From Pirellulales bacterium (GTDB lineage Bacteria > Planctomycetota > Planctomycetia > Pirellulales > UBA1268), in assembly GCA_040877375.1 (NCBI GenBank), contig JBBDNW010000177.1:1609-65608 (forward strand): DNA of 64,000 nucleotides. The letters run 5' to 3'. A model generated the notes under the pieces. That model made no database searches. It had not been told where the DNA came from and saw nothing but the letters and a program-made list of their open reading frames with translations. Positions within the stretch are counted from its first letter, which is position 1, and every line of letters begins with the position of its first letter. Positions 9,344 to 38,019 of this stretch are shown piece by piece. The translations under genes were made by a program, and so were the position numbers.

Positions 9344-9659
9344 CGCCAGTCCTCCAAAATGTCAGAGTTGAGTGCGGTAGGAGCCCCACCGCCGTCAGAA
9401 AATCTCGGCTCAAAAGGCCGAACGAGACGCCGATTAGACTTTGCGGGTCTGAAAATGCAACCCAAAAAAAGCATCCGTCCCTGAAAAAAGGCCATTTTCC
9501 TGGCTTCGGGGCGTGTTTTTCTCCACGGTGCGGTCGTGAATAGCTCGATTGTTCGTGGAAAACCCCGCGATTCAAGGAGCGGATGGCACGCGGCACACCC
9601 GTTTGGGTGCAGGTGGTACGATCCCACGAGACGGTTGGTCGCCAGTCATCCGTGATTCC

Positions 9660-15415: not shown

Positions 15416-15470
15416 CCCGCCCCCCGCCAGCCGCCGCCGAGCCCGAACCACTCCCGGAGAATCGTCCCGC

Positions 15471-16511: not shown

Positions 16512-17394
16512 GGCGATCGCCCGCATCCACCGGCTCGAGCTCCGCGCCCGGGCGGTGGTCGAGGGCGTGCTGGCCGGCCTCCACAAGAGCCCGTTCAAGG
16601 GGCAGTCGGTGGAGTTCTTGCAGCACCGTGAATATGTCCGTGGCGACGACCTTCGCCGGGTCGACTGGAAGGTCTGGGGCCGGCAGGACCGGCTGTACGT
16701 CAAGGAGTATGAGGAGGAGACGAACCTGCGGCTGACCCTGCTCGTCGACGGCTCCACGAGCATGGACTACTCCGGCGCAGCGACGGCCGGCACGACGCGG
16801 CCCACGAAGTTTGAGTGTGCTGCGACGCTCGCCGCGAGCCTCGCCTGGCTCGCGCTCTCGCATGGCGACGCGGTGGGCTGCGGTGTGTTTGACGACCGGC
16901 TGCGGGCCAGCGTGCCGGCGCGGACGAAGCGGTCGCAGTTGACGGGTGTCTGCGAGGTGCTCGAGACGCCCCGCAACGCCGGGGCCGGCGACTTTCTTCG
17001 CGTGCTGCGGGCCGCCGCCGAGACGCTGCCCAAGCGGGGCATGGTGATCGTGATCTCCGACCTCCTCGGTGACCGAGACGGCATCTTCAAGGGATTGCAG
17101 CTCCTCCGGACGCGCGGGCACGACCTGGCGCTGTTGCACGTCATGGACGACGACGAGCTCGACTTTCCCTTCGAGGGGCCGACGCGATTCGAGGGGCTCG
17201 AACTCCCCGCGCACCTTGCCTGCAACCCGCGGGCGCTCCGCGCTGGATATCTGGAGGCGATCGACGGCTTTCTCGCCGATGTCCGCACGCGGGCCACGGC
17301 GATTCGCTGCGATGAGGCGCTGGTTCGCACGGGTGAGCCCGTGGACGCGGCGCTCGTGCGTTTTCTGTCGCGTCGTGCGAGCGCGGCCGTCTAG
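16477..17394 (+). CDS. DUF58 protein (MoxR partner)
   Basis: Hallmark [33 protein letters not shown]. Sits directly after moxR. Start uncertain: GTG 16477 overlaps moxR by 35 nt; TTG 16501 is an alternative. Confidence 0.9.
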
Positions 17395-17411
17395 CCAGAG
17401 CGGAGTGAGCC

Positions 17412-19700: not shown

Positions 19701-19715
19701 AGCCGCCTGCACGTC

Positions 19716-22127: not shown

Positions 22128-22130
22128 CCG

Positions 22131-24353
22131 ATGGCCGTGACCCTGCTACCCGCTGACACTCCCGCGACGCCCCGAGAGGATGCGGCGGTCTCCGCTGCGC
22201 CGCTGGCGGTGCTGCTCGCCTCGATTCGTCGGCAGGCAACCCGCTGGATCTGGGTTGAGTCGCTGGCGCTCGCCCTGCTCGCCGCCCTCGCGGCGGCGTG
22301 GCTCTCGCTTGCGGTTGACTGGCTGGTCGAGCCACCGGCCTGGGTGCGGGCCTGCATCCTCGTAGTCGCGCTGGCGACCATCGTGTGGATCCTCGTGACC
22401 CGACTCGTAACGCGGCTGCGCGTGCCGCTCACCGACGAGTCGCTTGCTCTCGCGATCGAGCGGACGCATCCCGGCTTCCACGACGGGCTCTCGACCGCGG
22501 TCGCGTATGCCCGCCTTCGTACCGGCGGCGATGAATCCGGCGCGGATGAATCCGGCACAGACGAACTCGTCGATCGCGAACTCGTTGATCGCACGATCGC
22601 AGGGGCGGTGACGCTGGTTGACCGCGTGCGTCCCGAGGTGCTCTTCCGGCGCACGCGTCTCATGGGCCTGGCGCTGGCAGCGCTGGCGCTGCTCGGAGCG
22701 ACCACGGCGGCGGCCGCGGCGAGCCCGGGCGTGGCGACTGTTTGGGCGCGGCGGTTCCTGTTACTCACCGATGATCCCTGGCCGCGACGCGTCACGCTTG
22801 AGGCCCCTGACTTCGCCGCGGGGGTTCGGACGGTGGCCCGGGGGTCTGATGTCGACGTGGTGGTGCTCGCGCGGGCGAAGGGAACCATGCCCGACGTCGT
22901 CGAACTCCGCACCCGGAGCCGCGATGGCTGGCGAACCGAGCGCATGGGTACCCGCGGCAGACCCACCGAGGCCGGGCAGGTGTTTGGCCACGTGCTCAAA
23001 CGGGTTGACGACGATCTCACGGTCGACGTGCGTGGGGGCGATGCCCGGCTGCGCGGCCTGAGGATCGTCGTCGCCGATCCACCCGCGGTCGCCGATGTCA
23101 GGATTGTTGCCACGTTGCCAGAGTACCTCGGCGGTGGGTCCCGTCAGCTCGTGCCCAGCCGGCTCGTGCAGGTTCCCCGCGGGGCTGCCGTGGAGTTTGA
23201 GTGCACCTCGACCAAGCCGCTGGCAACCGCCACGCTCGCAGTGCGACAGGCCGGTGGCGAGGCGCGGGCAGAACAGCCGATCGCCAGCCTGAAACGTGGT
23301 GCGGCGGACATGCGGACGATCAGTGGGCGGATTCCCGCGATCGACGCCGACACCGCCGTGCTCGTGCGTCTTACCGACACCGTGGGCCTCGAGAACCGCG
23401 ATCCGCTGGTGGTCGTGTTTTCGGCGGTGCCGGACGAGCGGCCCGAGGTCGCGCTGCGGCTCGTCGGTATCTCGTCGGCGGTCACGCCGCAGGCAGTGCT
23501 GCCCCTTGAGGGCACGATCTCCGACGACCATGCCCTTGGCGGTGCCGCAGTGCTGCTGGCCGCGGGCGAGCTCGACCGCACGCTTCCGATCGCCCGCGTG
23601 CGCGGCGGTGAGCCGCTGGTGGAGTTGCCGGCCGCGCAGCCGGAACTGGTGCCACTGGCCGGCTTGGGGCTGGCCGTGGGTGCGCGGCTCGAGGTCGTCG
23701 TGTCGGCCCGCGACACCTGTACCCTCGACGGTGAACCGAACGAGGGACGAAGTGACCGCTGGACGCTGGACGTGGTCACCCCTGAATCGCTGCGAGCGAT
23801 GCTCGAGGCCCGCGAGATCCTGCTCCGCCGCCGGTTTGAGGCGACGATCGATGATTGTGCGAAGGTCCGTGACGTCGTGGCGAACGAATCGCGAACCGAT
23901 GACGCCGGGTCGCTTTCAACCGCGCTGGCCCGGTGTGGCGAGGCGACCGCCCGCGCCATCGGCGAGACGTCCGAGATTGCCGCCGAGTTTCGGGGCATCG
24001 GCCGGGAGCTGGCCAACAACGCCTTGCTCACGCCGGAGATCGAGGCCCGACTGGTGACGCAGATTGCCGCTCCCCTCTCGGCCCTCGTTGATGGCGAACT
24101 CGCCGCGGTGGCCCGGGCTTCCCGAGGGCCCGCGGGCAGCGGTAGTGCCGCCGGCGATCAGCGGGGTGTGGTGCGGCTCCTTGACGTAGCGCTGGCCCGC
24201 ATGCGGGCGGTGCTCGAGCGGATGCTTGAACTCGAGTCGGTCAACGAGGTGATCGAGCGGCTCCGCAGCGTGATCCGCACGCAGGAGCAGATCCGCGCGG
24301 AGACGCTCGAACGACAGCGGAAGCGCGGCCGCGAAGCTTTGGAGTCGCCATGA
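22131..24353 (+). CDS. hypothetical membrane protein (740 aa)
   Basis: Two N-terminal TM helices followed by a large soluble region. Begins 3 nt after the previous stop. Codon usage is consistent with its neighbours. Confidence 0.6.
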   Translation: MAVTLLPADTPATPREDAAVSAAPLAVLLASIRRQATRWIWVESLALALLAALAAAWLSLAVDWLVEPPAWVRACILVVALATIVWILVTRLVTRLRVPLTDESLALAIERTHPGFHDGLSTAVAYARLRTGGDESGADESGTDELVDRELVDRTIAGAVTLVDRVRPEVLFRRTRLMGLALAALALLGATTAAAAASPGVATVWARRFLLLTDDPWPRRVTLEAPDFAAGVRTVARGSDVDVVVLARAKGTMPDVVELRTRSRDGWRTERMGTRGRPTEAGQVFGHVLKRVDDDLTVDVRGGDARLRGLRIVVADPPAVADVRIVATLPEYLGGGSRQLVPSRLVQVPRGAAVEFECTSTKPLATATLAVRQAGGEARAEQPIASLKRGAADMRTISGRIPAIDADTAVLVRLTDTVGLENRDPLVVVFSAVPDERPEVALRLVGISSAVTPQAVLPLEGTISDDHALGGAAVLLAAGELDRTLPIARVRGGEPLVELPAAQPELVPLAGLGLAVGARLEVVVSARDTCTLDGEPNEGRSDRWTLDVVTPESLRAMLEAREILLRRRFEATIDDCAKVRDVVANESRTDDAGSLSTALARCGEATARAIGETSEIAAEFRGIGRELANNALLTPEIEARLVTQIAAPLSALVDGELAAVARASRGPAGSGSAAGDQRGVVRLLDVALARMRAVLERMLELESVNEVIERLRSVIRTQEQIRAETLERQRKRGREALESP

Positions 24354-25951
24354 TCGAGTCCCGAGATCACCGAGCGTTGTGTATTGCCGCCCTCCCGCTG
24401 CTTTTGTCCACGGGAGCGATCGTCTTCCCGTCCATGGCCGCCGAGACGCCGCCGGCACATGCTGCGCTCGCCGCCCGCGAAGCCGAACTGCTCGAGCAGT
24501 ACCGTGAACTCGAGCGGTCGTTTCTCCGGCTGGCCGACCTGCTCGTCGCCACCGATCCACGTCGGGCCGCGGTCTTGCGGTCGACGTTTGACCGGGCCCG
24601 TGAGGGGCAGGTGGGCGACCGGGTGGCGGCGATCGTGACGCTGCTCGAGCAGGGCCAACTGCTGAAGGCGGGCACGAGTCAGCAGGATGCGATCGATCAG
24701 TTTCGGGCGTTGCTCCAGCTGCTCGAATCGGGGGCGGGCGAGTCACGGATCGCCGACACGAAGAAGGAGGTGCGGGCCTTCATCGGGCGGGTCACGAAAC
24801 TGATCGCGAAACAAAAAGACATCGAGGGCTCGACGGAGGCCGGCGATGCGGAGGCGAAGTTGGCCGAACGGCAGCGGGCGGCTGCCGACGAAGCGGGAGC
24901 GCTTGGCGAAGAGATCGACTCCTTCGCGCGGCGGATCGACGACCTTGACCCCGCGGCCGGCGGCGAGAAGGCCGCGGAGGCGGGTGCCGAAGGTCCTGCG
25001 GATCGGCACTCCACGCCGCCCGCCGAGGGGGGCGATGGCGAGCCGGGGCAGCCCTCTGGTGACGCAGGTGAAGCCAAGGACGCGGCTGGTGATCCGCCGG
25101 CCGAGGGCGACGACGACGCGGCCCGCGCGCGGCGGACGCGGCAGCGGCTGCAGGCTGCGGAGCAGCGGATGCAACAGGCCCGGGAGCGGCTCGACGAAGC
25201 CAAACGTCGCGACGCGCGACGCGAGCAGGAGAAGGCGATCGAGGAACTGGAGACCGCCCGGGCGGAACTGGAAGAGATCCTCCGGCAACTCCGCGAACAG
25301 GAAGTGGAGCGGCTGCTGGTCAACCTCGAGTCTCGCCTGCGCGGGATGCTCCGGGCCGAACGGTCGGTGCTCGCCGATGCGGAGAAGCTCGTGGCGGCAG
25401 ACGCCTCTCAATCCGAACGCGAGCGGCAGCTCGAGGCCGCCCGGCTCGGCCGCGAGCAGACGACGATCACGACCGAGGCCGCGAAGGCGATGACGCTGGT
25501 GCGCGACGACGGCACCGCGGTCGCGATCCCCCAGGCACTCGAGCAGGTCCACGACGACTCCGTGCAGGCGGCGGCCCGACTCGGTCGCGGCGACGCTGGC
25601 CGCGAGACGATCGGGATCGTGGGCGACATCGTGACCGGTCTCGAGGAGATGCTCGCGGCGGTCGAGAAGGCGCAGCAATCGCAGAAGAAGGAGGAGGAGG
25701 CCGGGGGAGCTCCCGGGGGCCGGGCCGGCGAGCCGGGGGAACAGCCGCTGGTCGACAAGCTCGCGGAGCTCAAGATGCTCCGCTCACTGCAGATGCGGGT
25801 CAACACCCGCACCCGGCGGTTCGCACAGGTCCTCGACGACACCGACCACGCCGCACAGCCCGAAGTCCGCGCCGTTCTCGACCGGCTGGCCGAACGGCAG
25901 CGGGCGATCGAGCGGGCCGCGCGAGACATTGTGTCGGGCCTGGTGGAGTAG
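24350..25951 (+). CDS. exported acidic coiled-coil protein (533 aa)
   Basis: ATGA overlap with the upstream gene. Signal peptide present. Long E/R/A/Q-rich heptad-like stretches. Confidence 0.6.
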   Translation: MIESRDHRALCIAALPLLLSTGAIVFPSMAAETPPAHAALAAREAELLEQYRELERSFLRLADLLVATDPRRAAVLRSTFDRAREGQVGDRVAAIVTLLEQGQLLKAGTSQQDAIDQFRALLQLLESGAGESRIADTKKEVRAFIGRVTKLIAKQKDIEGSTEAGDAEAKLAERQRAAADEAGALGEEIDSFARRIDDLDPAAGGEKAAEAGAEGPADRHSTPPAEGGDGEPGQPSGDAGEAKDAAGDPPAEGDDDAARARRTRQRLQAAEQRMQQARERLDEAKRRDARREQEKAIEELETARAELEEILRQLREQEVERLLVNLESRLRGMLRAERSVLADAEKLVAADASQSERERQLEAARLGREQTTITTEAAKAMTLVRDDGTAVAIPQALEQVHDDSVQAAARLGRGDAGRETIGIVGDIVTGLEEMLAAVEKAQQSQKKEEEAGGAPGGRAGEPGEQPLVDKLAELKMLRSLQMRVNTRTRRFAQVLDDTDHAAQPEVRAVLDRLAERQRAIERAARDIVSGLVE

Positions 25952-25990
25952 GGGGAATCCGGCATGGATAAAGTGAAGCGTTGGTAAATC

Positions 25991-26100
25991 GGGGCGGGGT
26001 GCTACCCGGATTCCCCGCGCTTGTGCTTGGGGCTTCCTGACGGGAGCGAGGGGTCGGCGAACGCTCGAGGAGCCTCGGGCCGGCGCGGCCCACAGCGACA
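25991..26100. repeat. modular hairpin repeat (family B, copy 1)
   Basis: ggggcggggtgctacccg-TTCCCCGCGCTTGTGCTTGGGGCTTCC-tgacgggag...ggggtcggcgaacgctcgaggagc...; homologous to 58504-58630. Confidence 0.85.
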
Positions 26101-26177
26101 ATCCGCAGGGCCGCGACTATCATAGAATGGTTCGCGACGCTGACCGCGGACATCTCCGGCGGTCTGTGGAGTTGTGC

Positions 26178-27260
26178 ATGACATCGCCGTCTGGCCGCCG
26201 TCTCGCCCGTGCCATCGTGCTCGGCGTGTGCCTTGGCGCCGGTCGCTGTGCTCTCGTGGCAGCGATGCCCGCCGGCATCGCCGATCCCGAACTCGCCCGC
26301 GAGCCGTCGTGGCGCATCCCGCCGGTCGAGGAGGTTCGCGACCGGGCTCTCGCCTGGCTCGCGGCCGCCGAGTCTGCGGGGCAGCCTTCGGCAGCAGCGA
26401 CGCGGGCCCGTGCGGCCTGGGGGGCTGCCGACGGTCGGCCGCGTGTCGACGTGCTCGACGCCGTGATGGAGACCGTGAGCTGCGGCGAGCCACGGGCCGA
26501 GGCGATCCGGACGGCCGCGGCCGGCGACCCTGATCTCTCCTGGCTGGACGATTCCGTGACGACGCCCTTCGTGCGGGACGCCGTGAAACTCTGGTGGGGT
26601 CGCGAGCTGGTGCGGCGTGACCGTTTCGACGACGCCATGCCCCTGCTCGTGGGCCTCGACGTGGCCGCCGCGGTCGATCCCGCCACGCTGCTCTTTCATC
26701 GAGCGGCCTGCCAGCACTGGCTCCTCGCCGTGGACGACGCGCTCGAAAGCCTCGACCGACTGCTCGAGCGCGAACACGAGATCCCGGTGCGCTATGCCCG
26801 CGTGGCACGCCTGCTGCGGGTCGATATGGCGGCGCTCGACCGCGATTCGCTCGACCACATTGCCCGCCGGATGCGCGACGTCACCCGCCGGCTCGACCTC
26901 GGCCGGGCCGGCTCCGCGACCCGCGATGTTCAAGACGGCGTGATCGAGTCGCTCGACAAACTCATCGAGCAGCTGCAGGACCAGCAACAGCAGCAGGGGG
27001 GCGGTGGAGCCGCAGGTGCCGGAGGCGGCCCGGGGCAGGGGGCCGCCGGCAAGCCGATGGAAGACAGCCGACCTGCCGGAGGCCGCGGCCCAGGCGACGT
27101 GCAGGGGCGCGATCTGGGCGTGGGCGACGACTGGGGCCGGCTTCCGCCCCACGATCGCGAACAGGCGCTGCAGCAGATTGGACGCGAGTTTCCACCGCAC
27201 TACCGGGAGGCGATCGAACAGTATTTCAAGCGGCTCGCGTCCGGCGGGGAGGACCGCTGA
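26178..27260 (+). CDS. exported hypothetical protein with Q/G-rich linker
   Basis: Signal peptide MTSPSGRRLARAIVLGVCLGAGRCALVAA. QDQQQQQGGGGAAGAGGGPGQG linker. C-terminal FPPHYREAIEQYFKRLA. Confidence 0.6.
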   Translation: MTSPSGRRLARAIVLGVCLGAGRCALVAAMPAGIADPELAREPSWRIPPVEEVRDRALAWLAAAESAGQPSAAATRARAAWGAADGRPRVDVLDAVMETVSCGEPRAEAIRTAAAGDPDLSWLDDSVTTPFVRDAVKLWWGRELVRRDRFDDAMPLLVGLDVAAAVDPATLLFHRAACQHWLLAVDDALESLDRLLEREHEIPVRYARVARLLRVDMAALDRDSLDHIARRMRDVTRRLDLGRAGSATRDVQDGVIESLDKLIEQLQDQQQQQGGGGAAGAGGGPGQGAAGKPMEDSRPAGGRGPGDVQGRDLGVGDDWGRLPPHDREQALQQIGREFPPHYREAIEQYFKRLASGGEDR

Positions 27261-27262
27261 GC

Positions 27263-28510
27263 GTGCAGGCCGTGATTTTTTTTCGTCGCCGAACCCTCGT
27301 GGCCGTCTGCGGAGCCGGGGTTGCCATCTCGAGCTGGGGCGTGGCGTCGGTGGCGGCGGCACCCGCGGCCGACGTGGCGGTCCGCGTCGAGATGACGGAT
27401 GGTTCGGTCGTGGAAGGACTGCTCGAGGCGATCGACAAGTCGCAGGTGACGCTCGAACTGGCGGCCGGGCGGCGGGAGATGTTGCTGGCCACCATCCGCA
27501 GGATCGGAAGGCATCCGCCGCCTGGAGCGGACCCGCTGGTTGCCGCACTGCCGGTGGAGGTGATGGGTGCTGATGGCGCGCGGATCACCGGCGACGATTT
27601 TCTCTGGGAGGGCGATACGGCTGTGATCGTGCGGGGGGCCGAGCGGATCGAGTTGCCGATCGACCGCGTGAAGACGGTGGCCTGGGGGGCACGGCCGGTC
27701 GAGGGTCCTGCTGCGGCCGAGCGCGGGGCATGGATGGCGGCGGTACCCGCCGAGCCTGCGGCCGACTTGGTCGCCGTGTCGCGGGAAGGCGGCTTCGAAC
27801 TTGTCGAGTGTGCGATCACAGCAGTGTCGCCGGAGGTGGTGACGGTGGTGCTCGACGGAGAACGGATTCCGGTCAAACGTGGCAAGGTGCTCGGCCTCGT
27901 CTGGGTTCGGCCGATGACTGCGGGCAGCGGCAGCCGAGTGACGATCGCCGGAGGCAGCCTGACGGCCGCGACCGTGGAGTGGACGGCGGAAAAGCTCGTG
28001 CTCGATGGGACGGTGCGAATCCCCGGCGGTCTTATCGAATCGATCGATTACGCCGCCGGCCGCACAGTCAGCCTCGCGGCACTGCCGCCAGCGACGGTTT
28101 CGGCCGAACCATTTTTCGGAGCGCTCGCGTCGGTCGATGGCCTCGCGACGTTTTTCGCGCCGCGGCTGGTGCCGGCGCCCGGCGCGAAGGCCGCCGACGA
28201 AGCGGGGGCGAACCGCTCGCTGCTCATGCGGCCGCGAACCCGCGCCGTGTGGCTGGTGCCCGCCGATAGCCAGCGATTTCGCGCGGCGGTTGTCCGCGTG
28301 GCCGCGGGGCAGGCAGGGGGGGCCGTGCGAGTCGCGGTGTTGGCCGACGACCGTGCGGTGTGGGAACAACGGCTCGACGCCGCGGCGGTCGGCGGCCTGC
28401 CGATCGACGTCGACATGACGGCTGCCCGCCGGCTGACCCTCGTGGTCGATTTCGTTCCCGGCAACATGGGGTGCCCCGTGCGGTTTGACGGCGCGGTCTT
28501 CGAAAAATGA
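27263..28510 (+). CDS. exported hypothetical protein (415 aa)
   Basis: GTG start 2 nt after the previous stop. Signal peptide MQAVIFFRRRTLVAVCGAGVAISSWGVASVAAA. Confidence 0.55.
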   Translation: MQAVIFFRRRTLVAVCGAGVAISSWGVASVAAAPAADVAVRVEMTDGSVVEGLLEAIDKSQVTLELAAGRREMLLATIRRIGRHPPPGADPLVAALPVEVMGADGARITGDDFLWEGDTAVIVRGAERIELPIDRVKTVAWGARPVEGPAAAERGAWMAAVPAEPAADLVAVSREGGFELVECAITAVSPEVVTVVLDGERIPVKRGKVLGLVWVRPMTAGSGSRVTIAGGSLTAATVEWTAEKLVLDGTVRIPGGLIESIDYAAGRTVSLAALPPATVSAEPFFGALASVDGLATFFAPRLVPAPGAKAADEAGANRSLLMRPRTRAVWLVPADSQRFRAAVVRVAAGQAGGAVRVAVLADDRAVWEQRLDAAAVGGLPIDVDMTAARRLTLVVDFVPGNMGCPVRFDGAVFEK

Positions 28511-30258
28511 TCCCGACTCTGCTCTTTCTGCGACGCGGTATTCCGGCCTGGCGGCGAATCGTAGCAGCGCTGATCGTCATGGCCGGCAGTGGTGCCACTG
28601 CACGGGCCTTCGACGTCGATCCCGTGGTGCTCGAGGCGGAGCGGAGCCGCATCGAAGCCATTCGGCGGGCATCCACCGCGGCCGTGTCAATCTTCGCTGG
28701 TGACGCGGGGGGCGGTTCGGGCGTGCTGCTCACCCCCGACGGCTACGCGGCCACCAACTTTCACGTGGTGCAGCCCGCCGGCGCCGCGATGACCTGCGGA
28801 CTGGCCGACGGACGGCTCTACGACGCCGTGCTCGTGGGGATCGATCCGACCGGCGACCTGGCGCTCGTGAAACTGCTCGGCCGCGACGACTTCCCCTGCG
28901 CCGTGCTCGCCGACAGCGATCTGGTGGAGGTGGGAGATTTCTGTTTCGCCGCGGGCAACCCCTTCCTGCTGGCCACCGACCTCAAGCCTTCGATCAGCGC
29001 CGGGATCGTGTCGGGCGTGCACCGCTACCAGTTCCCGGCCGGCACGATCCTTGAATACACCGACTGCCTGCAGGTTGACGCTGCGATCAATCCGGGCAAC
29101 TCCGGGGGTGGGCTGTTTGACGCCACTGGTCGGCTCATCGGCGTCAACGGCAGGGCGTCGTTCGAGAAGCGCGGCCGCGTGAACGTGGGAGCCGGATATG
29201 CGATCTCGTCAAATCAAGTGCGGAACTTCCTCGGCTGTCTGAGGGCGGGGCGAATCTGCGATCACGCGACGCTCGGCGCGACCGTGGCGACGAGCGCTGA
29301 AAGTCGCGTCGTTGTCTCCGACATCCTCGAATCATCTGACGCCTGGCGGCGGGGCCTGCGGTATGACGACGAGATCATCGCGCTTGCCGGCCGGCCGGTC
29401 CGCACCGTGAACGCCTTCAAGAATGTGCTCGGAACGCTGCCGGCGGGCTGGCAGGTGCCGCTGGTCTACCGGCGCGGGGGCCGTCGCACCGAAGTGCTCG
29501 TGCGGCTCGCCGGCATCCACGCCCCCGCCCAGCTGGCGACGATCGTCGCGGGAGGTGCGGAGGAGGAGAAGCCGCGGCCCGGTGCGGATGCTGCGCGGCC
29601 AGAACTCCCCGCCGCGGTCCGCAGTGTTTACGACGCCCGTCCCGGATTCGCCAACCACCACTTCAACGTGGTTGAGCGCGACCGGGTGGCCGCCGCCATG
29701 GTCGCAGTTCGCGACGCCACGGCGCTGGGGCCGTGGGTGCTTTCCGGAAGGCTTGCGACGGGGGACGAGTTTCGCATCGAGCTCTCCGACACGGCCGCGT
29801 CGATCGATCTCCCGACGGGCACCTCGACACTTACCGTCGACGACGCGCTCGATCGCAACCCGGTGCCCCCTGGGAGCGGTGGCATGCTCGCGGCGCTCGT
29901 GCTCTGGCGGCAACTCGTCACCGCGGGCCCCGCCGCCGTCGGACGGACCACCTACTGGGGCACAGCACCACGCGATCCCAGCGCCCTGGGCGACGCGGCG
30001 ATCGTCGACTTTGTCGACGTGCTGGAGTCGGCCACGTCGGGCGTCGAAGCGCGGTTCGCCGTGGACGGCGGCCGGGTGGTGTCGATCGATCTCTGGACGA
30101 GCCCCGATGCCGAACCATGCGAGGTGAGACTCGTGTGGGACGAGTTGGGGGAAGGGGAGCCGCCGCCGACGCCCGCGCGGCTGGAGGTCAGGCGGGGCGG
30201 ACAGGAGTTTGGCACGTTCGTGATCGAGCCGTCCGCACCCCGGGGAAAGGCACCATGA
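28507..30258 (+). CDS. HtrA/S1C-type trypsin-like serine protease with PDZ domain (catalytic triad intact)
   Basis: ATGA-coupled start. Signal peptide present. His in GSGVLLTPDGYAATNFHVV, Asp in DLALVKL, Ser in INPGNSGGGLFD. PDZ-like segment RGLRYDDEIIALAGRPV. Confidence 0.85.
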   Translation: MIPTLLFLRRGIPAWRRIVAALIVMAGSGATARAFDVDPVVLEAERSRIEAIRRASTAAVSIFAGDAGGGSGVLLTPDGYAATNFHVVQPAGAAMTCGLADGRLYDAVLVGIDPTGDLALVKLLGRDDFPCAVLADSDLVEVGDFCFAAGNPFLLATDLKPSISAGIVSGVHRYQFPAGTILEYTDCLQVDAAINPGNSGGGLFDATGRLIGVNGRASFEKRGRVNVGAGYAISSNQVRNFLGCLRAGRICDHATLGATVATSAESRVVVSDILESSDAWRRGLRYDDEIIALAGRPVRTVNAFKNVLGTLPAGWQVPLVYRRGGRRTEVLVRLAGIHAPAQLATIVAGGAEEEKPRPGADAARPELPAAVRSVYDARPGFANHHFNVVERDRVAAAMVAVRDATALGPWVLSGRLATGDEFRIELSDTAASIDLPTGTSTLTVDDALDRNPVPPGSGGMLAALVLWRQLVTAGPAAVGRTTYWGTAPRDPSALGDAAIVDFVDVLESATSGVEARFAVDGGRVVSIDLWTSPDAEPCEVRLVWDELGEGEPPPTPARLEVRRGGQEFGTFVIEPSAPRGKAP

Positions 30259-30360
30259 TCCGCAGCGTGGTCGTGATGGCGCTGTGCTGCGTGGCCTGCC
30301 CCGTGCTGGTCGCCGCCGAGGGCGTCGTGGCAGGCGACGGCCGCGGCGGCGGCCCGCAAG

Positions 30361-31269
30361 GTGGTGAAGATCCATGGGGCGGGGGGCGTCCGCGGCCTGG
30401 AGTCGTATCAGTCGGGGATGCTGGTGTCGCCGGACGGCCGGATAGTGACCTCGATGAGCACCGTGCTCGATTCCGATGAGATCGATTGCGTGCTCGATGA
30501 CGGCCGGCGGTTTCGGGGCACGCTGGTGGGAGTCGATCCGCGGCGGGAGATCGCGCTGCTCACGATTCCCGCGACCGATCTCCCGGCCTTCACGCTCGAG
30601 GCTACCGACCGGGTGGTCGCCGGCACGCGGATCCTCGCGCTCTCAAACCTCTTCGCCGTGGCAGCAGGCGATGAACGGGTGAGCGTGCAGCGGGGCGTGG
30701 TGGCGGCGGTCGTGCCACTCGCGGCCCGGCGCGGCGCCGCGGAGGCTCCCTATACCGGCGACGTCTACGTGCTCGACTGTACGACCAATAATCCGGGATC
30801 GCCCGGTGGAGCGGTGGTCGACTCACGCGGGCGGCTTATCGGTATGCTTGGCAAGGAGCTGCGCTCGACGGCGGGCGGCATCTGGCTCAACTACGCGCTG
30901 CCCGTCGATGAAATCGCCCGCGGCTGTGAGGCGATCATGTCCGGCACCGCCGCAGAGCAGCCTGCTGGCAGGCCTCTGGAGTCGCTCGATCTGCGGGCCA
31001 TCGGCATCGTGCTCGTGCCGGATCTGATCGACCGCACGCCGCCCTTCGTCGAGTCGGTTGTCGCCGACTCCATCGCTGCGCAGGCGGGGCTCCGCGCCGA
31101 TGATCTCGTGATCGCCGTCGGGGCCGCGTCGGTGGCGTCTCGGGCGGCAGTGCAGCAGGCTGTCGGCGGAATTGAGCCGGGCGACCCGGTGCGGCTGTCT
31201 GTGATCCGCGATGGCGCCGTGGTTGAGTGCGACGTGGGCCCGCGGCCCCGGGGTCGGGAGAAGCTATGA
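30361..31269 (+). CDS. HtrA-like PDZ protein, catalytically degenerate; probable 5' extension to ATG 30255 across a frameshift
   Basis: The trypsin-fold pattern is retained, but TSMSTVL replaces TNxHVV and NNPGSPGGAVV replaces NPGNSGGPL. PDZ segment AAQAGLRADDLVIAVG. See the frameshift finding. Confidence 0.7.
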   Translation: MVKIHGAGGVRGLESYQSGMLVSPDGRIVTSMSTVLDSDEIDCVLDDGRRFRGTLVGVDPRREIALLTIPATDLPAFTLEATDRVVAGTRILALSNLFAVAAGDERVSVQRGVVAAVVPLAARRGAAEAPYTGDVYVLDCTTNNPGSPGGAVVDSRGRLIGMLGKELRSTAGGIWLNYALPVDEIARGCEAIMSGTAAEQPAGRPLESLDLRAIGIVLVPDLIDRTPPFVESVVADSIAAQAGLRADDLVIAVGAASVASRAAVQQAVGGIEPGDPVRLSVIRDGAVVECDVGPRPRGREKL

Positions 31270-33302
31270 GGTCTTTAGTGCAGCCACGTCGCAGCACAGG
31301 GCTCGCGGTCGCGGTGCAGTTGTTCCTGATGCGCGTGGCTGTCATGGCTGTCATGGCACTGGCGGCGCCGGCGGTTGGGGGGGAGCCGACCCTCGCCGAG
31401 GAGGCGGCCTTTCGCGCGGCGGTGGCCCGCGTGGCGGGGGCCGTCGTCCGCATCGAGCCCGCCGTGGGAACGCGGGCCACGCTTTCGGCGGCAGCCGAGG
31501 CCGGCGGCGCGTCGGGGCCGTCTACGGGGCTAGTCATCGATCCGGCGGGGCTCATTCTGGCGACCACGTTTGCCGTGCCTGAGGATGCGACGGAAGCGAT
31601 CGTCGTGCTTGCCGACGGTGAACGGCGGGCCGCGAAGCCGCGGGGCCGTGACCTTGCGCGGGGCATCGTGCTGCTCGAGACCACGCCACTTCCCACGGCA
31701 CCCGCGGTCGAGGCGGTGCCGCGCCGGGACCTCGCGCCGGGGCAGTGGACGATCGCGGTTGGTCGGGCCTGGACCGCGGCCGAACCGAGCGTCGCCGTCG
31801 GTATCCTGTCGGCCGTCGACCGCGGCTGGGGGCTCGCGGTGCAGACCGACGCATCCGTCTCGCCGATGAACTACGGCGGCCCGCTCGTCGATATCGCCGG
31901 CCGTGTGATCGGCATCCTCGCGCCGCTGCCGGCCGACACCGCGGGCATGAAGCTCGGCACCGAGCTCTACGACGCCGGCATCGGTTTCGCCGTGCCGCTC
32001 GAAGATCTGCTCCACGATCTGCCGCGGCTGGCCCGTGGTGAGTCGCTTGGTCGCGGAATCCTGGGCATCAGCTACCGCTCGCGTGACGAGATCAACGGCG
32101 AACCCGTGCTCGCATCGGTGCGGCAGGGGTCGCCCGCGGCCCGCGCGGGATTGCGGGCCGGCGATCGAATCGTGGAGATCGGAGGCCGGCCCGTGGCACG
32201 AATCGCCGATGTGCGTCATGGGCTCGTGCCACAGCACTCCGGCGACGAAGTCGAACTCGTGATCGAGCGGCAGGCAGCCGCCGGAGAGTCTGCGAGGCTG
32301 ACAGTGAAGGTGACCCTCGCCGCGGCGCTGCCGCCGTGGAGACGGGCCGTGCTCGGCATGACCGCGGTGCCAGAGGACGACGAGTCGGCACCCATGCAGG
32401 TGGCGTGGGTGTTGCCGGGCGGACCGGCCGACCGGGCGGGGCTCGCGGCGGGTGTCATCGTGACGTCGATCGGGGCGGTGACGGACGAGACGATTCCCCC
32501 GCTTGTGAAGCCATCGGCCACCGCGATTGCCGGGTTTCTCGCGGGCATGGAACCGGGGCAGCGAGTCCGGGTGACGGTGGAAGCGGACGGCACGCCGACG
32601 CAGGCCGAGCTGGAGTTGGCCGCGCTGCCCGGCGAGGTTCCTGATACCGGGCCGCCGTACGGGCCGACGATGGGCGACCCGCTGACAGGCCCGACCGATG
32701 CCGTGCGGGTTGTCCGGCTCGAGGCGGCGGAGATGGCCGACCCGCCGCTGGCGGTGATTCCTCGTGGCGGTCGGGATGCGGTCGCCGTGCTCGTTTACCT
32801 CGGGCTCCCGCATGGACCGGTCGCGGACGACGAGGCGACGAGGTGGAAGGCAGCCGTTGCTGAATCGGGCGTGGCCATCATCCTGCCCGGATCATCAGAC
32901 AATCGCCAGTGGAGTCGCGACGACATCCCCGCAGTGCTCCGCTCCCTCCAGTCGCTGCATGCGAAGCGGCCCATCGACCCGGCCCGCGTGGCAGTCGCCG
33001 GCAGTGGGGCAGGGGGGGCGTTTGCCTGGCTCGTCGCCGAACGGCTTGGCGCCGCGTGCCGTGGCATCGCGATCGTCGATGCCACCATGCCCCGAGCGTT
33101 CACGATCGAGCCCTCGCAGCCGGGCGACTCGCAGTGGATCCTGCTGGGAGCGGGGAGCGAATCGCTCCAGCGGCGTCTGGAAGACGACCGGCGGCGACTC
33201 GAGCGGGCCGGATATCCCGTCGGTTCGCTCGTGGTCAACGCCGATGAAACGGCGTCTGCCACGGTCCTTTCTCGGTGGGCGTCGCTATTAGGACTTCTCT
33301 GA
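31266..33302 (+). CDS. HtrA-like pseudoprotease with two PDZ domains and an alpha/beta-hydrolase-like C-terminal region
   Basis: ATGA-coupled start (MRSLVQPRR..., signal peptide). ATTFAV replaces TNxHV and VQTDASVSPMNYGGPLVD replaces TDAAINPGNSGGPL. PDZ segments SPAARAGLRAGDRIVEIGG and GPADRAGLAAGVIVTSIG. C-terminal VAVAGSGAGGAFAW. Confidence 0.75.
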   Translation: MRSLVQPRRSTGLAVAVQLFLMRVAVMAVMALAAPAVGGEPTLAEEAAFRAAVARVAGAVVRIEPAVGTRATLSAAAEAGGASGPSTGLVIDPAGLILATTFAVPEDATEAIVVLADGERRAAKPRGRDLARGIVLLETTPLPTAPAVEAVPRRDLAPGQWTIAVGRAWTAAEPSVAVGILSAVDRGWGLAVQTDASVSPMNYGGPLVDIAGRVIGILAPLPADTAGMKLGTELYDAGIGFAVPLEDLLHDLPRLARGESLGRGILGISYRSRDEINGEPVLASVRQGSPAARAGLRAGDRIVEIGGRPVARIADVRHGLVPQHSGDEVELVIERQAAAGESARLTVKVTLAAALPPWRRAVLGMTAVPEDDESAPMQVAWVLPGGPADRAGLAAGVIVTSIGAVTDETIPPLVKPSATAIAGFLAGMEPGQRVRVTVEADGTPTQAELELAALPGEVPDTGPPYGPTMGDPLTGPTDAVRVVRLEAAEMADPPLAVIPRGGRDAVAVLVYLGLPHGPVADDEATRWKAAVAESGVAIILPGSSDNRQWSRDDIPAVLRSLQSLHAKRPIDPARVAVAGSGAGGAFAWLVAERLGAACRGIAIVDATMPRAFTIEPSQPGDSQWILLGAGSESLQRRLEDDRRRLERAGYPVGSLVVNADETASATVLSRWASLLGLL

Positions 33303-33331
33303 TCGCGCGACCACTTTCCCCACTGCTGGCC

Positions 33332-34039
33332 ATGGACGGCCGCCTTGCCTCGGGCCTCCGCATCGTCTTTATCGACAACGACCTGATCGTCGTCGACAAG
33401 CCGTCGGGCATGCCGAGTGTTCCCGCTCGCACGCCGCTCGATCCACCCGACGTCGCCCGCGTGCTCGCGGCCTCCTACGGCCCGCTCGAGGCGGTGCACC
33501 GGCTCGACCGCGACACGTCGGGTCTGATCGTGCTGGCGCGGTCCCGCGAGGTACGGCGGCTCCTGGGACGAGCCTTCGAGGTGGGGACTATTTCGAAGCG
33601 GTATCTCGCGGTCGTGCACGGCACGCCGCCGGCCGATGAGGGCACGATTCATCTTCCGCTGGCCGATGATCCTGGCCGCGGGCCGCGGAAGCGGGTCGAC
33701 CCGATCGGCGGACGTCGGGCGACGACGCGGTGGTGGATCCGTGCGCGGCGTGCCGCAGGCTCAACAGCAGGCTGCGGCGACCTGCTCACGCTGGTCGAAC
33801 TCGAACCCGTGACCGGCCGGTCGCACCAACTCCGCGTGCATCTCGCTTGGCTCGGATGTCCGTTGGTCAACGACCGTCTCTACGGCCGCGGAGTGGACGG
33901 CCCGCTGGCGCTGCAGGCGATGTCGATCGCATTTTCCCATCCGCGGACGGCCGTCCCCCTGTCGCTGTCGGTCGCTCCCGCCGTGGGACCTCCCTGGTCA
34001 TCGTTTACGCTGGGGTCGGCATCAGCGCCGAGCGGCTGA
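33332..34039 (+). CDS. RluA-family pseudouridine synthase
   Basis: DNDLIVVDKPSGMPSVP and HRLDRDTSGLIVLARS (catalytic Asp motif). Start taken at ATG 33332 rather than the track's 33275. Confidence 0.85.
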   Translation: MDGRLASGLRIVFIDNDLIVVDKPSGMPSVPARTPLDPPDVARVLAASYGPLEAVHRLDRDTSGLIVLARSREVRRLLGRAFEVGTISKRYLAVVHGTPPADEGTIHLPLADDPGRGPRKRVDPIGGRRATTRWWIRARRAAGSTAGCGDLLTLVELEPVTGRSHQLRVHLAWLGCPLVNDRLYGRGVDGPLALQAMSIAFSHPRTAVPLSLSVAPAVGPPWSSFTLGSASAPSG

Positions 34040-35321
34040 CCTGCTGCCAGTAGCGGGAAAACCGCCCGAGGTCGGTCACCCGCGAGCGATCGCAGAAGGT
34101 TGGCCACGGTACCGTCCGCATTGGGAGCGCGGCCGCGATCGCCTCGGCGGCCGTTCGTGTCCGCGGGCATGACGTCTCGGCTACGGCGACCGCATCGCAG
34201 GCGAGGGCGGCCGCCCGCGTCGGGACCACCGTCCGCGGATCACCCGCGACGATCTCGACGCCGGGTACATCCGCGAGGCACTCAAACAGAAACACGAGCC
34301 GCTTGAGCGACGGGCGTTCCTCCGTGAGCCACGCGTTGTCGACGACAAACAGCCGGGGCGACTCCGGGAAAGCCGCGGCCGCCGGGCTCGTCGCCGCAGC
34401 GGAGTCGAGTGTCAGCCAGACGAGCGGCCGCACGGCCGGAGCGGCGCGGGCCGCCGGCTGCCGGGGCTTGATCCGGAGTGGCGGCCTGGAGATCGCAACG
34501 CCGCCTGCCACGAACAAGCGGTCGGCGAGGTCTTCGTAGGTTCCCTCCACGTCGCATGCACCAAGCACGGGGCAACTGCGGCAGTGCTCCCCGGCGGTAA
34601 ACGACTCGAGATTCTCCCGATTGAAAATGTAAGGCTTCGCGGAGAACGTGCCAGCGACCCATTGCCACGAGAGGTGGTTGCTCGCCGGATCACCGTCGAG
34701 CAGGTGTTCGAGAAACCAGTCGGCGCCGGCCCGCCAGCGGACGCCGCGGGCATGCACCAGCCACGAGGCGAGCCACATGCGTTCGTGGTTGTGCAGCCAG
34801 CCGGTCTCGTGCAGTCTCTGCACGAACCGGTCGATGCAGCGCATGCCGGTGCGGGCTTCGAGGACGTCGTCGGGCAGGCGGTCGAGCGGGGGAATCTTCG
34901 ACGCCGCGGCGGGCTGTTCGATGTCCCGGTTGATCGCGTCGCCGAGCGCCAGCTGGACCTGCCGCCAGTAGTCCCGCCAGCCGAGTTCCGACACGAGCTT
35001 CGTGGCCTGCTCGGGTCGGTCGACACGGGCGAGCGCGGCGTCACGGACCTCCGCGAGTGCGAGCACACCGTGTCGAATCCAGGGCGAGAGCATAGTCACC
35101 GCACCCGAGACGTGGTTGCGGGTGCGCTCGTAGGCGACCGGGTCGATCGCGGCCAGCCTTTCGAGGGCGGCCCGGCGGCCACCGCGGACGGCGGCCGCCG
35201 GCAGGCTGCGCCCCGGCCCTGACGTAGCCTCGGGAAAGGCCGCCGCGAGGGCCTCCGTGAGCTCATCACGAGGCATGCCGACGAGCGGCGTGAGATCCGT
35301 CGCCAAAGGTTTGTCGCCCAC
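34005..35321 (-). CDS. photolyase/cryptochrome-related FAD-binding protein with apparently permuted domain order
   Basis: N-terminal half carries FAD-domain motifs: MLSPWIRHG, LGWRDYW, TGWLHNHERMWLASWL, DGDPASNHLSWQWVAG, KPY. C-terminal ~170 aa resemble the photolyase alpha/beta domain (LVWLTLDS...RLFVVD...KRLVFLFECL). Confidence 0.75.
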   Translation of the reverse strand: MGDKPLATDLTPLVGMPRDELTEALAAAFPEATSGPGRSLPAAAVRGGRRAALERLAAIDPVAYERTRNHVSGAVTMLSPWIRHGVLALAEVRDAALARVDRPEQATKLVSELGWRDYWRQVQLALGDAINRDIEQPAAASKIPPLDRLPDDVLEARTGMRCIDRFVQRLHETGWLHNHERMWLASWLVHARGVRWRAGADWFLEHLLDGDPASNHLSWQWVAGTFSAKPYIFNRENLESFTAGEHCRSCPVLGACDVEGTYEDLADRLFVAGGVAISRPPLRIKPRQPAARAAPAVRPLVWLTLDSAAATSPAAAAFPESPRLFVVDNAWLTEERPSLKRLVFLFECLADVPGVEIVAGDPRTVVPTRAAALACDAVAVAETSCPRTRTAAEAIAAALPMRTVPWPTFCDRSRVTDLGRFSRYWQQVSRSALMPTPA

Positions 35322-35809
35322 ACGAATCTCCCTGGAAGTTGTCGGCTCGGTTCATGGCGTGAGCCTGCTGGCACCGTAGCCGTCTGCTGCGACCATGGGC
35401 AGTCCCTTGCCGGGAAACTGCGCTCGGCTCCTCCCGCCGCGGGAGAAGTAACGGTGGCCGCGGTCACCGTGAACATCGCTTAATTGGCGGCGAAACGCCA
35501 TCTGAGCCACGTCGCCATTGCCCCCCGTCGGGCACGGCATGGGGTTTGCTTCCTTATGAGTTGTCGCTCACGTGCCACGTGGGTCGGTGCGGCCGGCCCG
35601 CCGCTGCGGTTTGCGCCCGCCTCTGGCATACCGTCCGCAAGGATGCCGCACACGGTCTGGGTGGGTAATCCGCCTTACTCGCCCAGGCCGCGGCATGCGG
35701 CCACGCAGTGGCCCCCCACGGCGCTGAAATCGTCCCGCGGTTGGTGTGGGCGGCGGAGCGCGAGTAGCCTTGCGGCTGCTCTGCACAGCACGCGTCCGGG
35801 AAGCCGCAT

Positions 35810-36157
35810 GTGAAACTCATTATCGCGATCATCCAGCCAGGCAAACTCGAGAGCGTCAAGCAGGCACTCTCGGAAGTCGAGGTGTTTCGGCTCACGGTGC
35901 TCGACGTGCAGGGTTTCGGCCGACAGCGCGGCCACGCGGAGACGTACCGCGGCCATGAGATCTCGGTGAACCTGTTGCGGAAAGTGCAGCTCCAGATCGC
36001 CGTCAACGACGACTTCGTCGAGCCGACGATCGCGGCGATCGTGAAGGGTGGCCGATCTGGTGAGCTCGGTGAGATTGGCGACGGGAAGATCTTCGTTCTT
36101 CCCATGGATGAGTGCGTCCGCATCCGCACCGGCGAGCGCGGCGGCGAGGCGATCTAA
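35810..36157 (+). CDS. glnB: nitrogen regulatory protein P-II
   Basis: GTG start. MKLIIAIIQPGKLESVK...GFGRQRGHAETYRGHE (T-loop Tyr) ...IGDGKIFV...RIRTGE. Confidence 0.9.
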   Translation: MKLIIAIIQPGKLESVKQALSEVEVFRLTVLDVQGFGRQRGHAETYRGHEISVNLLRKVQLQIAVNDDFVEPTIAAIVKGGRSGELGEIGDGKIFVLPMDECVRIRTGERGGEAI

Positions 36158-36194
36158 CGCCTTCCGTTCAGGCTGCCTGCGAGTTCGGCGATGC

Positions 36195-36440
36195 CTGCCG
36201 TCAGGAAGCCCCAAGCGCAATCGCGGGGACTACGGGCGGCCTCGAGACGATGCCGGATTGGTTCGCCGGCGGTGGCATGCTCGCCGCCGGGGGATTTTGC
36301 TACAGGATGCTCGCTTGGCCGACGGGGCATTGCTCGTGAGTCGCAAAGATTCCCCGGCGTCTGCGCGTGCCTCCGACCGGCTCCTCACGATCGGGAGAGT
36401 GTGTCTCCCGACAGGAAGCCCCAAGCGCGAGCGCGAGGCG
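36195..36440. repeat. two partial copies of the 27-nt core repeat with flanks
   Basis: GGAAGCCCCAAGCGCAATCGCGGGGA at 36204-36229 and GGAAGCCCCAAGCGCGAGCGCGAGG at 36414-36438. Both are preceded by a (c)tcccg(t/a)ca flank, as in family B. Confidence 0.8.
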
Positions 36441-36444
36441 TCTG

Positions 36445-38019
36445 TCATGGCCGCTGCGGGTGGAGGCGGGGCGTCGCGCCGAGGGCGAGGCGATTGGTGG
36501 CGGCGAGGAAGGCCTTCGCCGAGGCTTCGAGCGAGTCGGTCGAGACGCCGCGGCCACGTTGCATCTGGCCCGCGTGCTCCAACTCCACCGTCACCTCGGC
36601 CTGCGCGTCCTTGCCGACCGTTACCGCCTGCACGCGGAAGTCGCGGCACACGGTCGTGATCCCGGTGAGTTTCTCGATTGCCAGGAAGATCCCGTCGATT
36701 GGGCCGTCACCCGCCGTGATCGACACCGACTTGGGCACGCCCTCCTGATGCACCCGCAGCGTCACCGTGGGTGCGGAGCCGGAATCGCTCGAGAGACTGT
36801 AGCCCTCGTAGACGAACTGCTCTGGGAGCGTTGAAAACTGCTGCTCGCAGAGCGCGGCGACGTCGCCGTCGTAGATCTCCTTCTTCCGGTCGGCCAGCAG
36901 CTTGAATCGCTCGAACACCGTCTGCAGCTGCTCGGGCGTGAGCTGGTAGCCGAGGGCTTTCGCCCGATCAGCGAGTGCCGCGCGGCCGCTGTGCTTGCCC
37001 AGCACGAGGTCGGTTCGCTCCAGCCCCACGTCCTCGGGCCGCATGATCTCGTAGGTCCGCCGCTCCTTGAGCATGCCGTCCTGGTGGATGCCCGCCTCGT
37101 GGGCAAAGGCATTGCGACCGACGATCGCCTTGTTGCGAGGCACCTGAATGCCGGTGATGTTGGCCACCAGGCGGCTGGTGGGCACGAGCTTCTGGGTGTT
37201 GATGCGCGTGTCGCAGTTGTAGTGATCGCCGCGTGTCCGCAACGCCATCACGACCTCCTCCAGCGAGCAGTTGCCCGCTCGCTCGCCGATCCCGTTGATC
37301 GTGCACTCGATCTGCCCCGCCCCTGCCTCCACGGCCGCGAGGCTGTTGGCCACGGCAAGGCCAAGGTCGTCGTGGCAGTGGGTGCTGATCACCGCCTTGT
37401 CGATGTTGGGCACCCGGTCCACAAGGCTCTTGATCACGCGGTGCATCTGCATCGGCGTCGCGTAGCCCACGGTATCGGGAATGTTGACGGTCGTGGCACC
37501 GGCCGCGATCACCGCCTCGACCACGCGGCAGAGGAAGTCGATCTCGGTCCGGGCCGCATCCTCGGGAGAGAACTCAACGTCTCCGCAGAGCGTGCGAGCC
37601 CGGCTCACGCCGGCGACGGCCCGGGCAAGCACCTCGTCTTCGTTCATCCGCAGTTTGAACTCGCGGTGGATCGAACTCGTGGCGAGAAACACGTGGATTC
37701 GCGGCTGGCGGGCATGCTGGAGGGCTTCCCAGGCGCGATCGATGTCGGCGTCGTTGCAGCGGGCCAGGCCGCAGATGGTGGCCCCCGACACGGCTCCCGC
37801 GATGTCGCGAACACTCGCGAAGTCGCCAGGCGAGGCGATCGGGAAGCCCGCTTCGATCACGTCAACGCCGAGCGACACCAGCGCCTGCGCGATCTCCATT
37901 TTCTCGGTCAGGTTCATGCTCGCGCCGGGCGATTGCTCGCCGTCGCGGAGCGTGGTGTCGAAGATCCGGATGGTGCGGGGCGTGGTCATGGGAGGGTCCG
38001 TGGTGGCGGCGGTGGGCAC
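36445..38019 (-). CDS. leuA: 2-isopropylmalate synthase
   Basis: [32 protein letters not shown] and a C-terminal LeuA dimerisation/regulatory region. 524 aa. Confidence 0.95.

Follow-up and report, generated by a model that had tools for sequence, protein, structure and literature searches.

A predicted HtrA protease and two HtrA-derived pseudoproteases at the distal end of a Pirellulales MoxR/VWA operon

Three adjacent genes (g1, g2 and g3) in a 64,000-nucleotide stretch of a Pirellulales bacterium genome (NCBI GenBank assembly GCA_040877375.1, contig JBBDNW010000177.1, positions 1,609 to 65,608 of the forward strand; this whole stretch, with a G+C content of about 70%, is called the window) encode one HtrA-like protease and two paralogs that have lost the catalytic triad. 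Judged from sequence, g1 is a member of the HtrA family, and g2 and g3 are HtrA-derived pseudoproteases, not proteases, whose dead states are ancient, fixed and under purifying selection. The interpretation that we favour, with modest confidence, is that the trio is a co-translated envelope module of the Pirellulales, in which g1 would be the sole catalytic subunit of a mixed HtrA-type oligomer working with a Bat-like complex. The three genes are:

28507..30258, + strand: g1, exported HtrA-like serine protease with intact triad, 583 codons; Pfam Trypsin_2 (3.4e-29) and PDZ_2
30331..31269, + strand: g2, mature part, HtrA-like pseudoprotease with one PDZ domain; Trypsin_2 (1.8e-21) and PDZ_2 (1.2e-9)
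31266..33302, + strand: g3, exported pseudoprotease with PDZ1, PDZ2 and an alpha/beta-hydrolase-fold domain; Trypsin_2 (1.3e-17)

The trypsin-like (chymotrypsin-fold) domain was found in all three products, both by Pfam and by alignment to DegP/DegQ/DegS chains (E 3e-38 for g1 against DegP, spanning protease and PDZ, 6e-25 for g2 against a DegP-like protein and DegQ, and 5e-21 for g3). The g1 product comprises an N-terminal signal-like segment, the protease domain (approximately residues 60-250), one PDZ domain (approximately 254-334) and an extra C-terminal domain (approximately 380-580). The g2 reading frame has 302 codons, counted from GTG 30361, the first in-frame start of the protease domain; g3, with 678 (or 691) codons, carries PDZ1 (approximately residues 262-349), PDZ2 (approximately 363-449) and the alpha/beta-hydrolase-fold domain (approximately 475-678). 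Hydrophobic signal-like segments are present at the N-termini of g1, g3 and the orthologous g2 proteins. An earlier reading of this DNA from its letters (the sequence-only reading) had placed PDZ domains in all three genes, and the Pfam matches bear this out: the PDZ_2 match of g1, at 27.6 bits, narrowly passes the cut-off of 27, and that of g3 reaches 6e-17 together with two PDZ_6 stretches.

The triad positions were located in phmmer alignments to solved DegP, DegQ and DegS chains, and the codons were verified in the window sequence. The g1 motifs TNFHVV, DLALVKL and GNSGGG align with TNNHVV (His), DIALIQI (Asp) and GNSGGA (Ser) of DegP, giving the triad H86 (nucleotides 28762-4), D117 (nucleotides 28855-7) and S199 (nucleotides 29101-3), complete as the sequence-only reading had it. 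The same three motifs read TSMSTVL, RREIALL and NNPGSPGGA in g2, where, numbered from GTG 30361, His is replaced by Ser33 (nucleotide 30457), Asp by Glu63 (30547) and Ser by Pro148 (30802). They read ATTFAV, ARGIVLL and SPMNYGGPL in g3, with His replaced by Phe102 (nucleotide 31569), Asp by Gly133 (31662) and Ser by Tyr203 (31872). It had been proposed from the letters that gene 2 keeps the fold without the triad, and that gene 3 carries ATTFAV and a Ser to Tyr replacement; both proposals agree with the alignments (Ser/Glu/Pro and Phe/Gly/Tyr, respectively). An intact triad placed elsewhere in genes 2 and 3, which the sequence-only reading had named as the outcome that would contradict it, was not found in the alignments to solved structures. 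A relocated triad was also ruled out by a screen of the g2 and g3 protease domains for His, Asp, Ser, Cys, Lys, Glu, Thr and Tyr conserved at 95% or more, in which no His reached this level anywhere across the domain (72 g2 and 78 g3 sequences).

The scores of g1, g2 and g3 against the Do-family model TIGR02037 are 188.2, 111.5 and 130.4 bits, all below the curated cut-off of 416.2, and g1 is best described as a divergent HtrA. Public entries label members of the g3 family (P0005, P0006, P0405, P0408, P0428 and others) 'serine protease Do' or 'S1-C subfamily serine protease' despite the missing triad. The 'serine protease Do' labels on this family are a systematic functional over-annotation and are misleading; in practical terms, the public naming of g2 and g3 as 'serine protease Do' is functionally wrong.

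A genome survey restricted to one genome per species gave at least 593 loci (species-level genomes), found with two search patterns, one of which was the g3 motif SPxN[YF]GGPL; 80 loci were fetched for ortholog analysis. His, Asp and Ser are each present in 60/60 of the g1 orthologs from genome loci, and H/D/S were also found in distant loci. Among the 72 g2 orthologs, the His site is Ser in 71 and the Asp site Glu in 68, and the Ser site is occupied by Pro (53), Ala (16), Gln (2) or Tyr (1). The g3 orthologs have Phe at the His site (76/78), mostly Gly at the Asp site, and Tyr at the Ser site in all 78. Whether the degenerate residues are kept in orthologs was a check proposed in the sequence-only reading, and these counts answer it in the affirmative for both genes. 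A homolog search with g3 gave more than 500 full-length matches (54-90% identity), every one of them from a Pirellulales/Planctomycetota metagenome; in 121/121 close homologs both Phe102 and Tyr203 are retained without change. When 1.84 billion cluster representatives were searched by phmmer with the C-terminal domain of g3, 306 matched, mostly proteins of 620-730 amino acids with the same architecture. In an alignment of 66 sequences (65 distant representatives with 24-51% identity, plus the window), the g3 Ser site is Tyr in 57 and Phe in 9, and a His was never seen at the His site.

The ratios of non-synonymous to synonymous substitution rates (dN/dS) between the window and contig L082, a 90-97% relative, are 0.11 for g1, 0.10 for g2 and 0.26 for g3. 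The mutual identity of g1, g2 and g3 is 26-29%, indicating that the duplications are ancient, not recent. The non-catalytic active-site loops are conserved as NNPG[SA][PA]GG in g2 and SPxN[YF]GGPL in g3; the latter, a dead active-site loop, is the most conserved motif of g3, which suggests that its cleft may still bind something.

The same conservation bears on two other explanations of the missing triads. One is that g2, g3 or both retain hydrolase activity through non-canonical catalytic groups, such as Tyr203 in g3 or Ser33/Glu63 in g2. The replaced sites are strongly conserved, so the pocket matters, but the Ser site of g3 is Phe in the 9 distant sequences mentioned above and in L089, indicating that the Tyr hydroxyl is dispensable and is not a nucleophile; the nucleophile site of g2 varies among Pro, Ala, Gln and Tyr; and neither domain has a conserved His. 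We know of no trypsin-fold enzyme that uses such residues catalytically, and consider this explanation very improbable. The other is that g2 and g3 have no function and are either pseudogenes in decay or artefacts of annotation. The loss of all three triad residues and a frameshift in the window copy of g2 (described below) would fit decay, but their conservation at full length in at least 593 species-level genomes, the low dN/dS, replacement residues fixed down to 24% identity and the conserved operon position leave it next to no probability; the conservation data effectively refute it.

A second lost active site was found at the end of g3:

32688..33299, + strand: g3 alpha/beta-hydrolase-fold domain, without nucleophile; elbow Gly581 (nucleotides 33006-8) in AGSGAGG, against GDSAGG in esterases

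The alpha/beta-hydrolase-like region that the sequence-only reading had seen at the C-terminus of gene 3 is confirmed. The profile of the last 225 residues of g3 matches family-IV esterases (E 7e-4 for Est8), with RiAvaGsGaGG aligned to RIAVAGDSAGG of 4ypv; Abhydrolase_3 was matched in 29/37 g3 members; and the AlphaFold2 model of the domain (predicted local distance difference test, pLDDT, 89.9; predicted template modelling score, pTM, 0.89) gave 885 Foldseek matches in the PDB at E<=1e-3, all of esterase/PETase type. In this model Gly581 is domain residue 128 and lies at the elbow between the strand 117-127 and the helix 129-144. The nucleophile column of g3 (n=121) contains Gly (80), Ala (18), Glu (10), Asp (9) and Ser (1), and Gly or Gln predominate in distant relatives. 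There is no invariant His in this domain. With the nucleophile lost (Ser to Gly) and no invariant His, g3 is a predicted double pseudoenzyme, dead in two enzyme folds.

The protease g1 also carries an additional domain:

29506..30255, + strand: g1 C-terminal region, linker and conserved beta-rich domain with invariant LPTGT and PPGSGG motifs

No family was recognised for this domain from its sequence, and the PDB profile search with it gave no match at E<=10. Its AlphaFold2 model (pLDDT 82.5, pTM 0.75) found as the best Foldseek match the LolA-superfamily structure 3buu (E 4.7e-3; template modelling score 0.42-0.46, a weak match), followed by LolB, LolA and RseB. The modelled fold is tentatively LolA/LolB/RseB-like, a lead only.

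The arrangement of the genes is consistent with their joint expression. ATGA start/stop overlaps of 4 nucleotides occur between the preceding gene u415 and g1 (28507-28510), between g1 and g2 (30255-30258) and between g2 and g3 (31266-31269); the ATGA coupling claimed in the sequence-only reading therefore stands at all three junctions, with the restriction that in the window the overlapping ATG of g2 is out of frame with its protease domain. A promoter/terminator scan of 27-35 kb found nothing above the shuffled expectation, with no promoter-like site and no terminator-like excess inside the trio region, consistent with one transcription unit. The genes upstream are:

15471-16511, + strand: MoxR AAA_3 ATPase (AAA_3 4.7e-62)
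16477-17394, + strand: DUF58 protein (DUF58 4.1e-39)
17412-19700, + strand: BatA_N double-transmembrane protein (BatA 5.3e-13; TIGR02226 2.3e-16)
19716-22127, + strand: VWA membrane protein (VWA weak, 3.5e-4)
22131-24353, + strand: u740, 740 amino acids, predicted transmembrane segments, no Pfam/NCBIfam match
24350-25951, + strand: u533, 533 amino acids, N-terminal hydrophobic signal-like segment, no Pfam/NCBIfam match
26127-27260, + strand: u377, 377 amino acids, N-terminal hydrophobic signal-like segment, no Pfam/NCBIfam match
27263-28510, + strand: u415, N-terminal hydrophobic signal-like segment and C-terminal NPCBM/NEW2-like domain; its stop overlaps the g1 start

From this layout, the trio is the predicted distal end of a 12-gene MoxR-DUF58-BatA-VWA operon, not a stand-alone cluster. 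The order g1, g2, g3 was found in 59/59 loci with enough upstream DNA (tblastn against the fetched loci), g1 never being missing there; the full order vwa-u740-u533-u377-u415-g1-g2-g3 was found in 36 loci, and three loci with a g3 of only 31-35% identity retain the same arrangement. The NPCBM match of u415 is weak in the window (6.6e-5, just below the cut-off), and the orthologs in L087-L089 have an unmarked NPCBM match. By eye, u533 is acidic and possibly coiled-coil. Upstream of MoxR, 14330-15415 is a putative operon member (361 amino acids, N-terminal hydrophobic segment, squalene-hopene-cyclase C-terminal, prenyltransferase-like match), and 9549-14303 is a 1584-codon open reading frame with PQQ/BamB-like beta-propeller repeats and a TTG start as listed. 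In L085 (2764-7863), opposite-strand genes, one of them encoding a HepT-like toxin, precede u377-u415-g1g2, and from this layout the last five genes and the MoxR/VWA part may be two separable units.

In several relatives g1 and g2 are joined in a single reading frame. Two 90%-identity clusters consist of g1-g2 single chains: P0219 (930 amino acids, 7 member sequences), on contigs from two JGI samples (L083:5424-8216 and L084:2085-4877), and P0232 (907 amino acids), from JGI and ENA (L085:5140-7863). Both comprise a complete g1 with its triad, a linker without a signal peptide, and an entire g2 whose triad sites read Ser/Glu/Ala or Pro, and both lie in the normal operon context and come from independent samples. 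Continuous g1-g2 open reading frames are also found in L067-69 and L078, where a hydrophobic remnant persists and separate translation of g2 is possible. The fusions argue for physical association, and together with the translational coupling and the invariant gene order they point to joint action of g1 and g2 at a fixed stoichiometry; the g2-g3 link is supported by the persistence of these two genes as a pair in L086. The gene order, the start/stop overlaps and the fusions lend indirect support to the hetero-oligomer or regulatory subunits suggested in the sequence-only reading.

HtrA proteases are built from trimers, which their protease domains hold together, and their PDZ domains exert allosteric control. 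Three co-translated exported paralogs, of which one is active, fit a mixed oligomer of this trimer-based, PDZ-regulated family. In the proposed mechanism, contacts between the protease domains would join g1, g2 and g3 in a mixed oligomer of HtrA type, the heterotrimer being its natural unit. The dead subunits g2 and g3 would supply peptide-binding clefts, three PDZ domains and scaffolding, and g3 would add its non-catalytic alpha/beta-hydrolase domain; g1 would supply the only active site and possibly a LolA/RseB-like ligand-binding or sensing domain. Together, these accessory domains would control access to the one active site, that of g1, or direct it to its targets. The module would act on, or be controlled by, the membrane/periplasmic MoxR-DUF58-BatA-VWA (Bat-like) complex encoded upstream, and this envelope complex is probably its target or regulator. 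A more specific version, an obligate 1:1:1 HtrA heterotrimer or higher assembly of one catalytic and two pseudo-subunits, coupled across the inner membrane to the MoxR AAA+/VWA machine and with the PDZ domains, the dead esterase domain and the LolA-like domain serving as sensors, is rather unlikely; if true, it would represent a kind of regulated envelope protease complex that has not been described before and that is characteristic of the Pirellulales.

Several observations weigh against the mixed complex. The distant, lower-GC lineage represented by L086 (8080-11168) keeps only an overlapping g2-g3 pair (g2 S/E/A, g3 Y/N/Y), directly after an acetyl-CoA synthetase gene, and neither g1 nor MoxR/VWA genes were found in the 8 kb upstream of it; the two dead proteins may accordingly be a unit with no strict need of a neighbouring g1. 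In the window the g2 signal peptide is out of frame, which, if real, would mean a strain without exported g2. Finally, no physical interaction was detected in the MamE/MamO precedent (PMC4794232). The L086 arrangement and the MamE-MamO result fit the main competing explanation, that g2-g3 is a non-catalytic pair independent of g1, serving for example as a holdase/chaperone in the periplasm or as a structural adaptor for the Bat-like VWA complex, and that g1 is a co-regulated homo-oligomeric quality-control protease. The cleft loops and PDZ domains that g2 and g3 conserve could bind peptides and leave them uncleaved, but the g1-g2 fusions recur in independent samples, the g1 stop overlaps the g2 start, and g1 is present in all 59 loci with enough upstream sequence; we regard an independent pair as unlikely.

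The disrupted g2 signal peptide of the window was analysed against its relatives:

30255..30329, + strand: g2 signal-peptide fragment, MIRSVVVMALCCVACPVLVAAEGVV; begins at the ATG that shares bases with the g1 stop, in a reading frame other than that of the remaining g2
30329..30331, + strand: 5-nucleotide deletion site, a frameshift with respect to the intact g2 of L082 and L002; position ambiguous by about 2 nucleotides (GC repeat)

A typical signal peptide is encoded from ATG 30255, in another frame than the g2 protease domain. Nucleotide alignment sets GTCGTG^GCAGG in the window against GTCGTGGCGCCGCAGG in relatives (at about 30329/30330), and the g2 of L082, a 90%-related contig, is intact with 339 amino acids. 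In all orthologous loci examined the signal peptide is in frame with '...PQ..IAAAARKVVKIYGAGG'. The open reading frame that the sequence-only reading had given as gene 2 (30361-31269) does exist; its 5' end is frameshifted, and the signal peptide starts at 30255. The remaining 302 codons of g2 are open and 96% identical to L082, with the same constraint as g1 (dN/dS 0.10), indicating that the lesion is either an assembly error or very recent.

A fresh inactivation of g2 in this genome, with a real deletion and a module running without exported g2, is possible, the balance lying somewhat against it. The deletion is clear against two intact orthologs and its site lies between short GC repeats, which fits slippage or microhomology deletion; furthermore, a loss of 5 nucleotides is atypical of a single-base homopolymer error. 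However, the open, constrained and 96%-identical remainder means that any loss is extremely recent, the signal peptide is in frame in all other loci examined, assembly/consensus errors are common in 70% GC repeats, and contig L001 (run SRR27977662), whose g1 is identical, stops short of the deletion site.

The genes downstream of g3 (33275-38019) were paired with those of L082 on the basis of size and position. The first encodes an RluA-type pseudouridine synthase (PF00849, 1.6e-29) and, with its listed GTG start, overlaps the end of g3; rluA is found after g3 in most, not all, loci. The next genes are a FAD_binding_7 photolyase-like gene (34005-35321, minus strand), a P-II protein gene (35810-36157) and an open reading frame of 524 amino acids (36445-38019, minus strand). 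Some operon-bearing contigs are filed as 'Candidatus Kuenenia stuttgartiensis' or 'uncultured Chitinophagaceae' (L013, L017, L019, L033, L039, L040, L059, L068, L074, L075 and L079-L081); errors of binning or taxonomy have probably given them the wrong names.

Literature on Planctomycetes MoxR/DUF58 and on HtrA-MoxR operons yielded no description of the module or of the operon, and the trio was compared with better-known systems. Like DegP, DegQ and DegS (MEROPS S1C), its members are exported proteins with a trypsin-like domain and C-terminal PDZ, and g1 has the canonical GNSGG serine loop; in contrast to these homo-oligomers of active subunits, g2 and g3 have no triad, and g1 and g3 carry extra C-terminal domains. 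Paralogous protease subunits in obligate mixed oligomers are known from chloroplast Deg5-Deg8 and from FtsH/FtsHi, the latter including inactive subunits. Deg5, which has no PDZ domain, and Deg8 are each catalytically competent, FtsH is an AAA+ metalloprotease unrelated to HtrA, and neither system, unlike the trio, is known to be linked to MoxR/VWA genes. In E. coli, RseB, a protein with the LolA fold, gates proteolysis by DegS, an HtrA protease, and the best, weak structural matches of the g1 C-terminal domain are LolA, LolB and RseB. Here the tentative LolA-like domain would be fused to the protease, unlike in RseB-DegS, and no RseA or sigma-E components were seen.

The operon as a whole resembles the Bat (aerotolerance) operons of Bacteroides and Leptospira, in which MoxR AAA_3, DUF58, BatA_N double-transmembrane and VWA proteins are likewise encoded together. 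The described Bat operons end in the TPR proteins BatC/BatE; by contrast, no TPR family match was reported by Pfam or NCBIfam for any open reading frame in 14330-33302, and the operon described here ends in the HtrA trio, with four predicted Pirellulales-specific exported proteins between the VWA genes and the trio. The function of the Bat operon is described as still experimentally undefined (PMC3557215), and a defined protease at the operon end gives a handle on these unexplained Bat-like MoxR-VWA operons.

Pseudoenzymes that partner active relatives are a recurring regulatory theme, and MamE/MamO is the only characterised bacterial HtrA precedent that we found. The MamO pseudoprotease is required non-catalytically for MamE proteolysis, and duplication followed by triad loss occurred three times (PMC4794232). 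As in MamE/MamO (and MamE1/MamE2), an active HtrA is encoded here with degenerate-triad trypsin-fold paralogs retained by selection, and the trio is a clean system for asking how catalytically silent subunits tune an HtrA oligomer. The NCBIfam MamO/MamE scores are far too low for membership, 24-122 bits against a cut-off of 800 (MamO against g2, 24 bits; no MamO match reported for g3). MamO has a fused TauE transporter domain and a metal site formed by two surface His (PMC4794232), whereas g2 and g3 have neither a conserved His nor a transporter domain. MamE/MamO belongs to the magnetosome island, whereas the trio sits in a MoxR/VWA operon of the Pirellulales and has two dead subunits, both with PDZ domains and one adding a dead alpha/beta-hydrolase domain.

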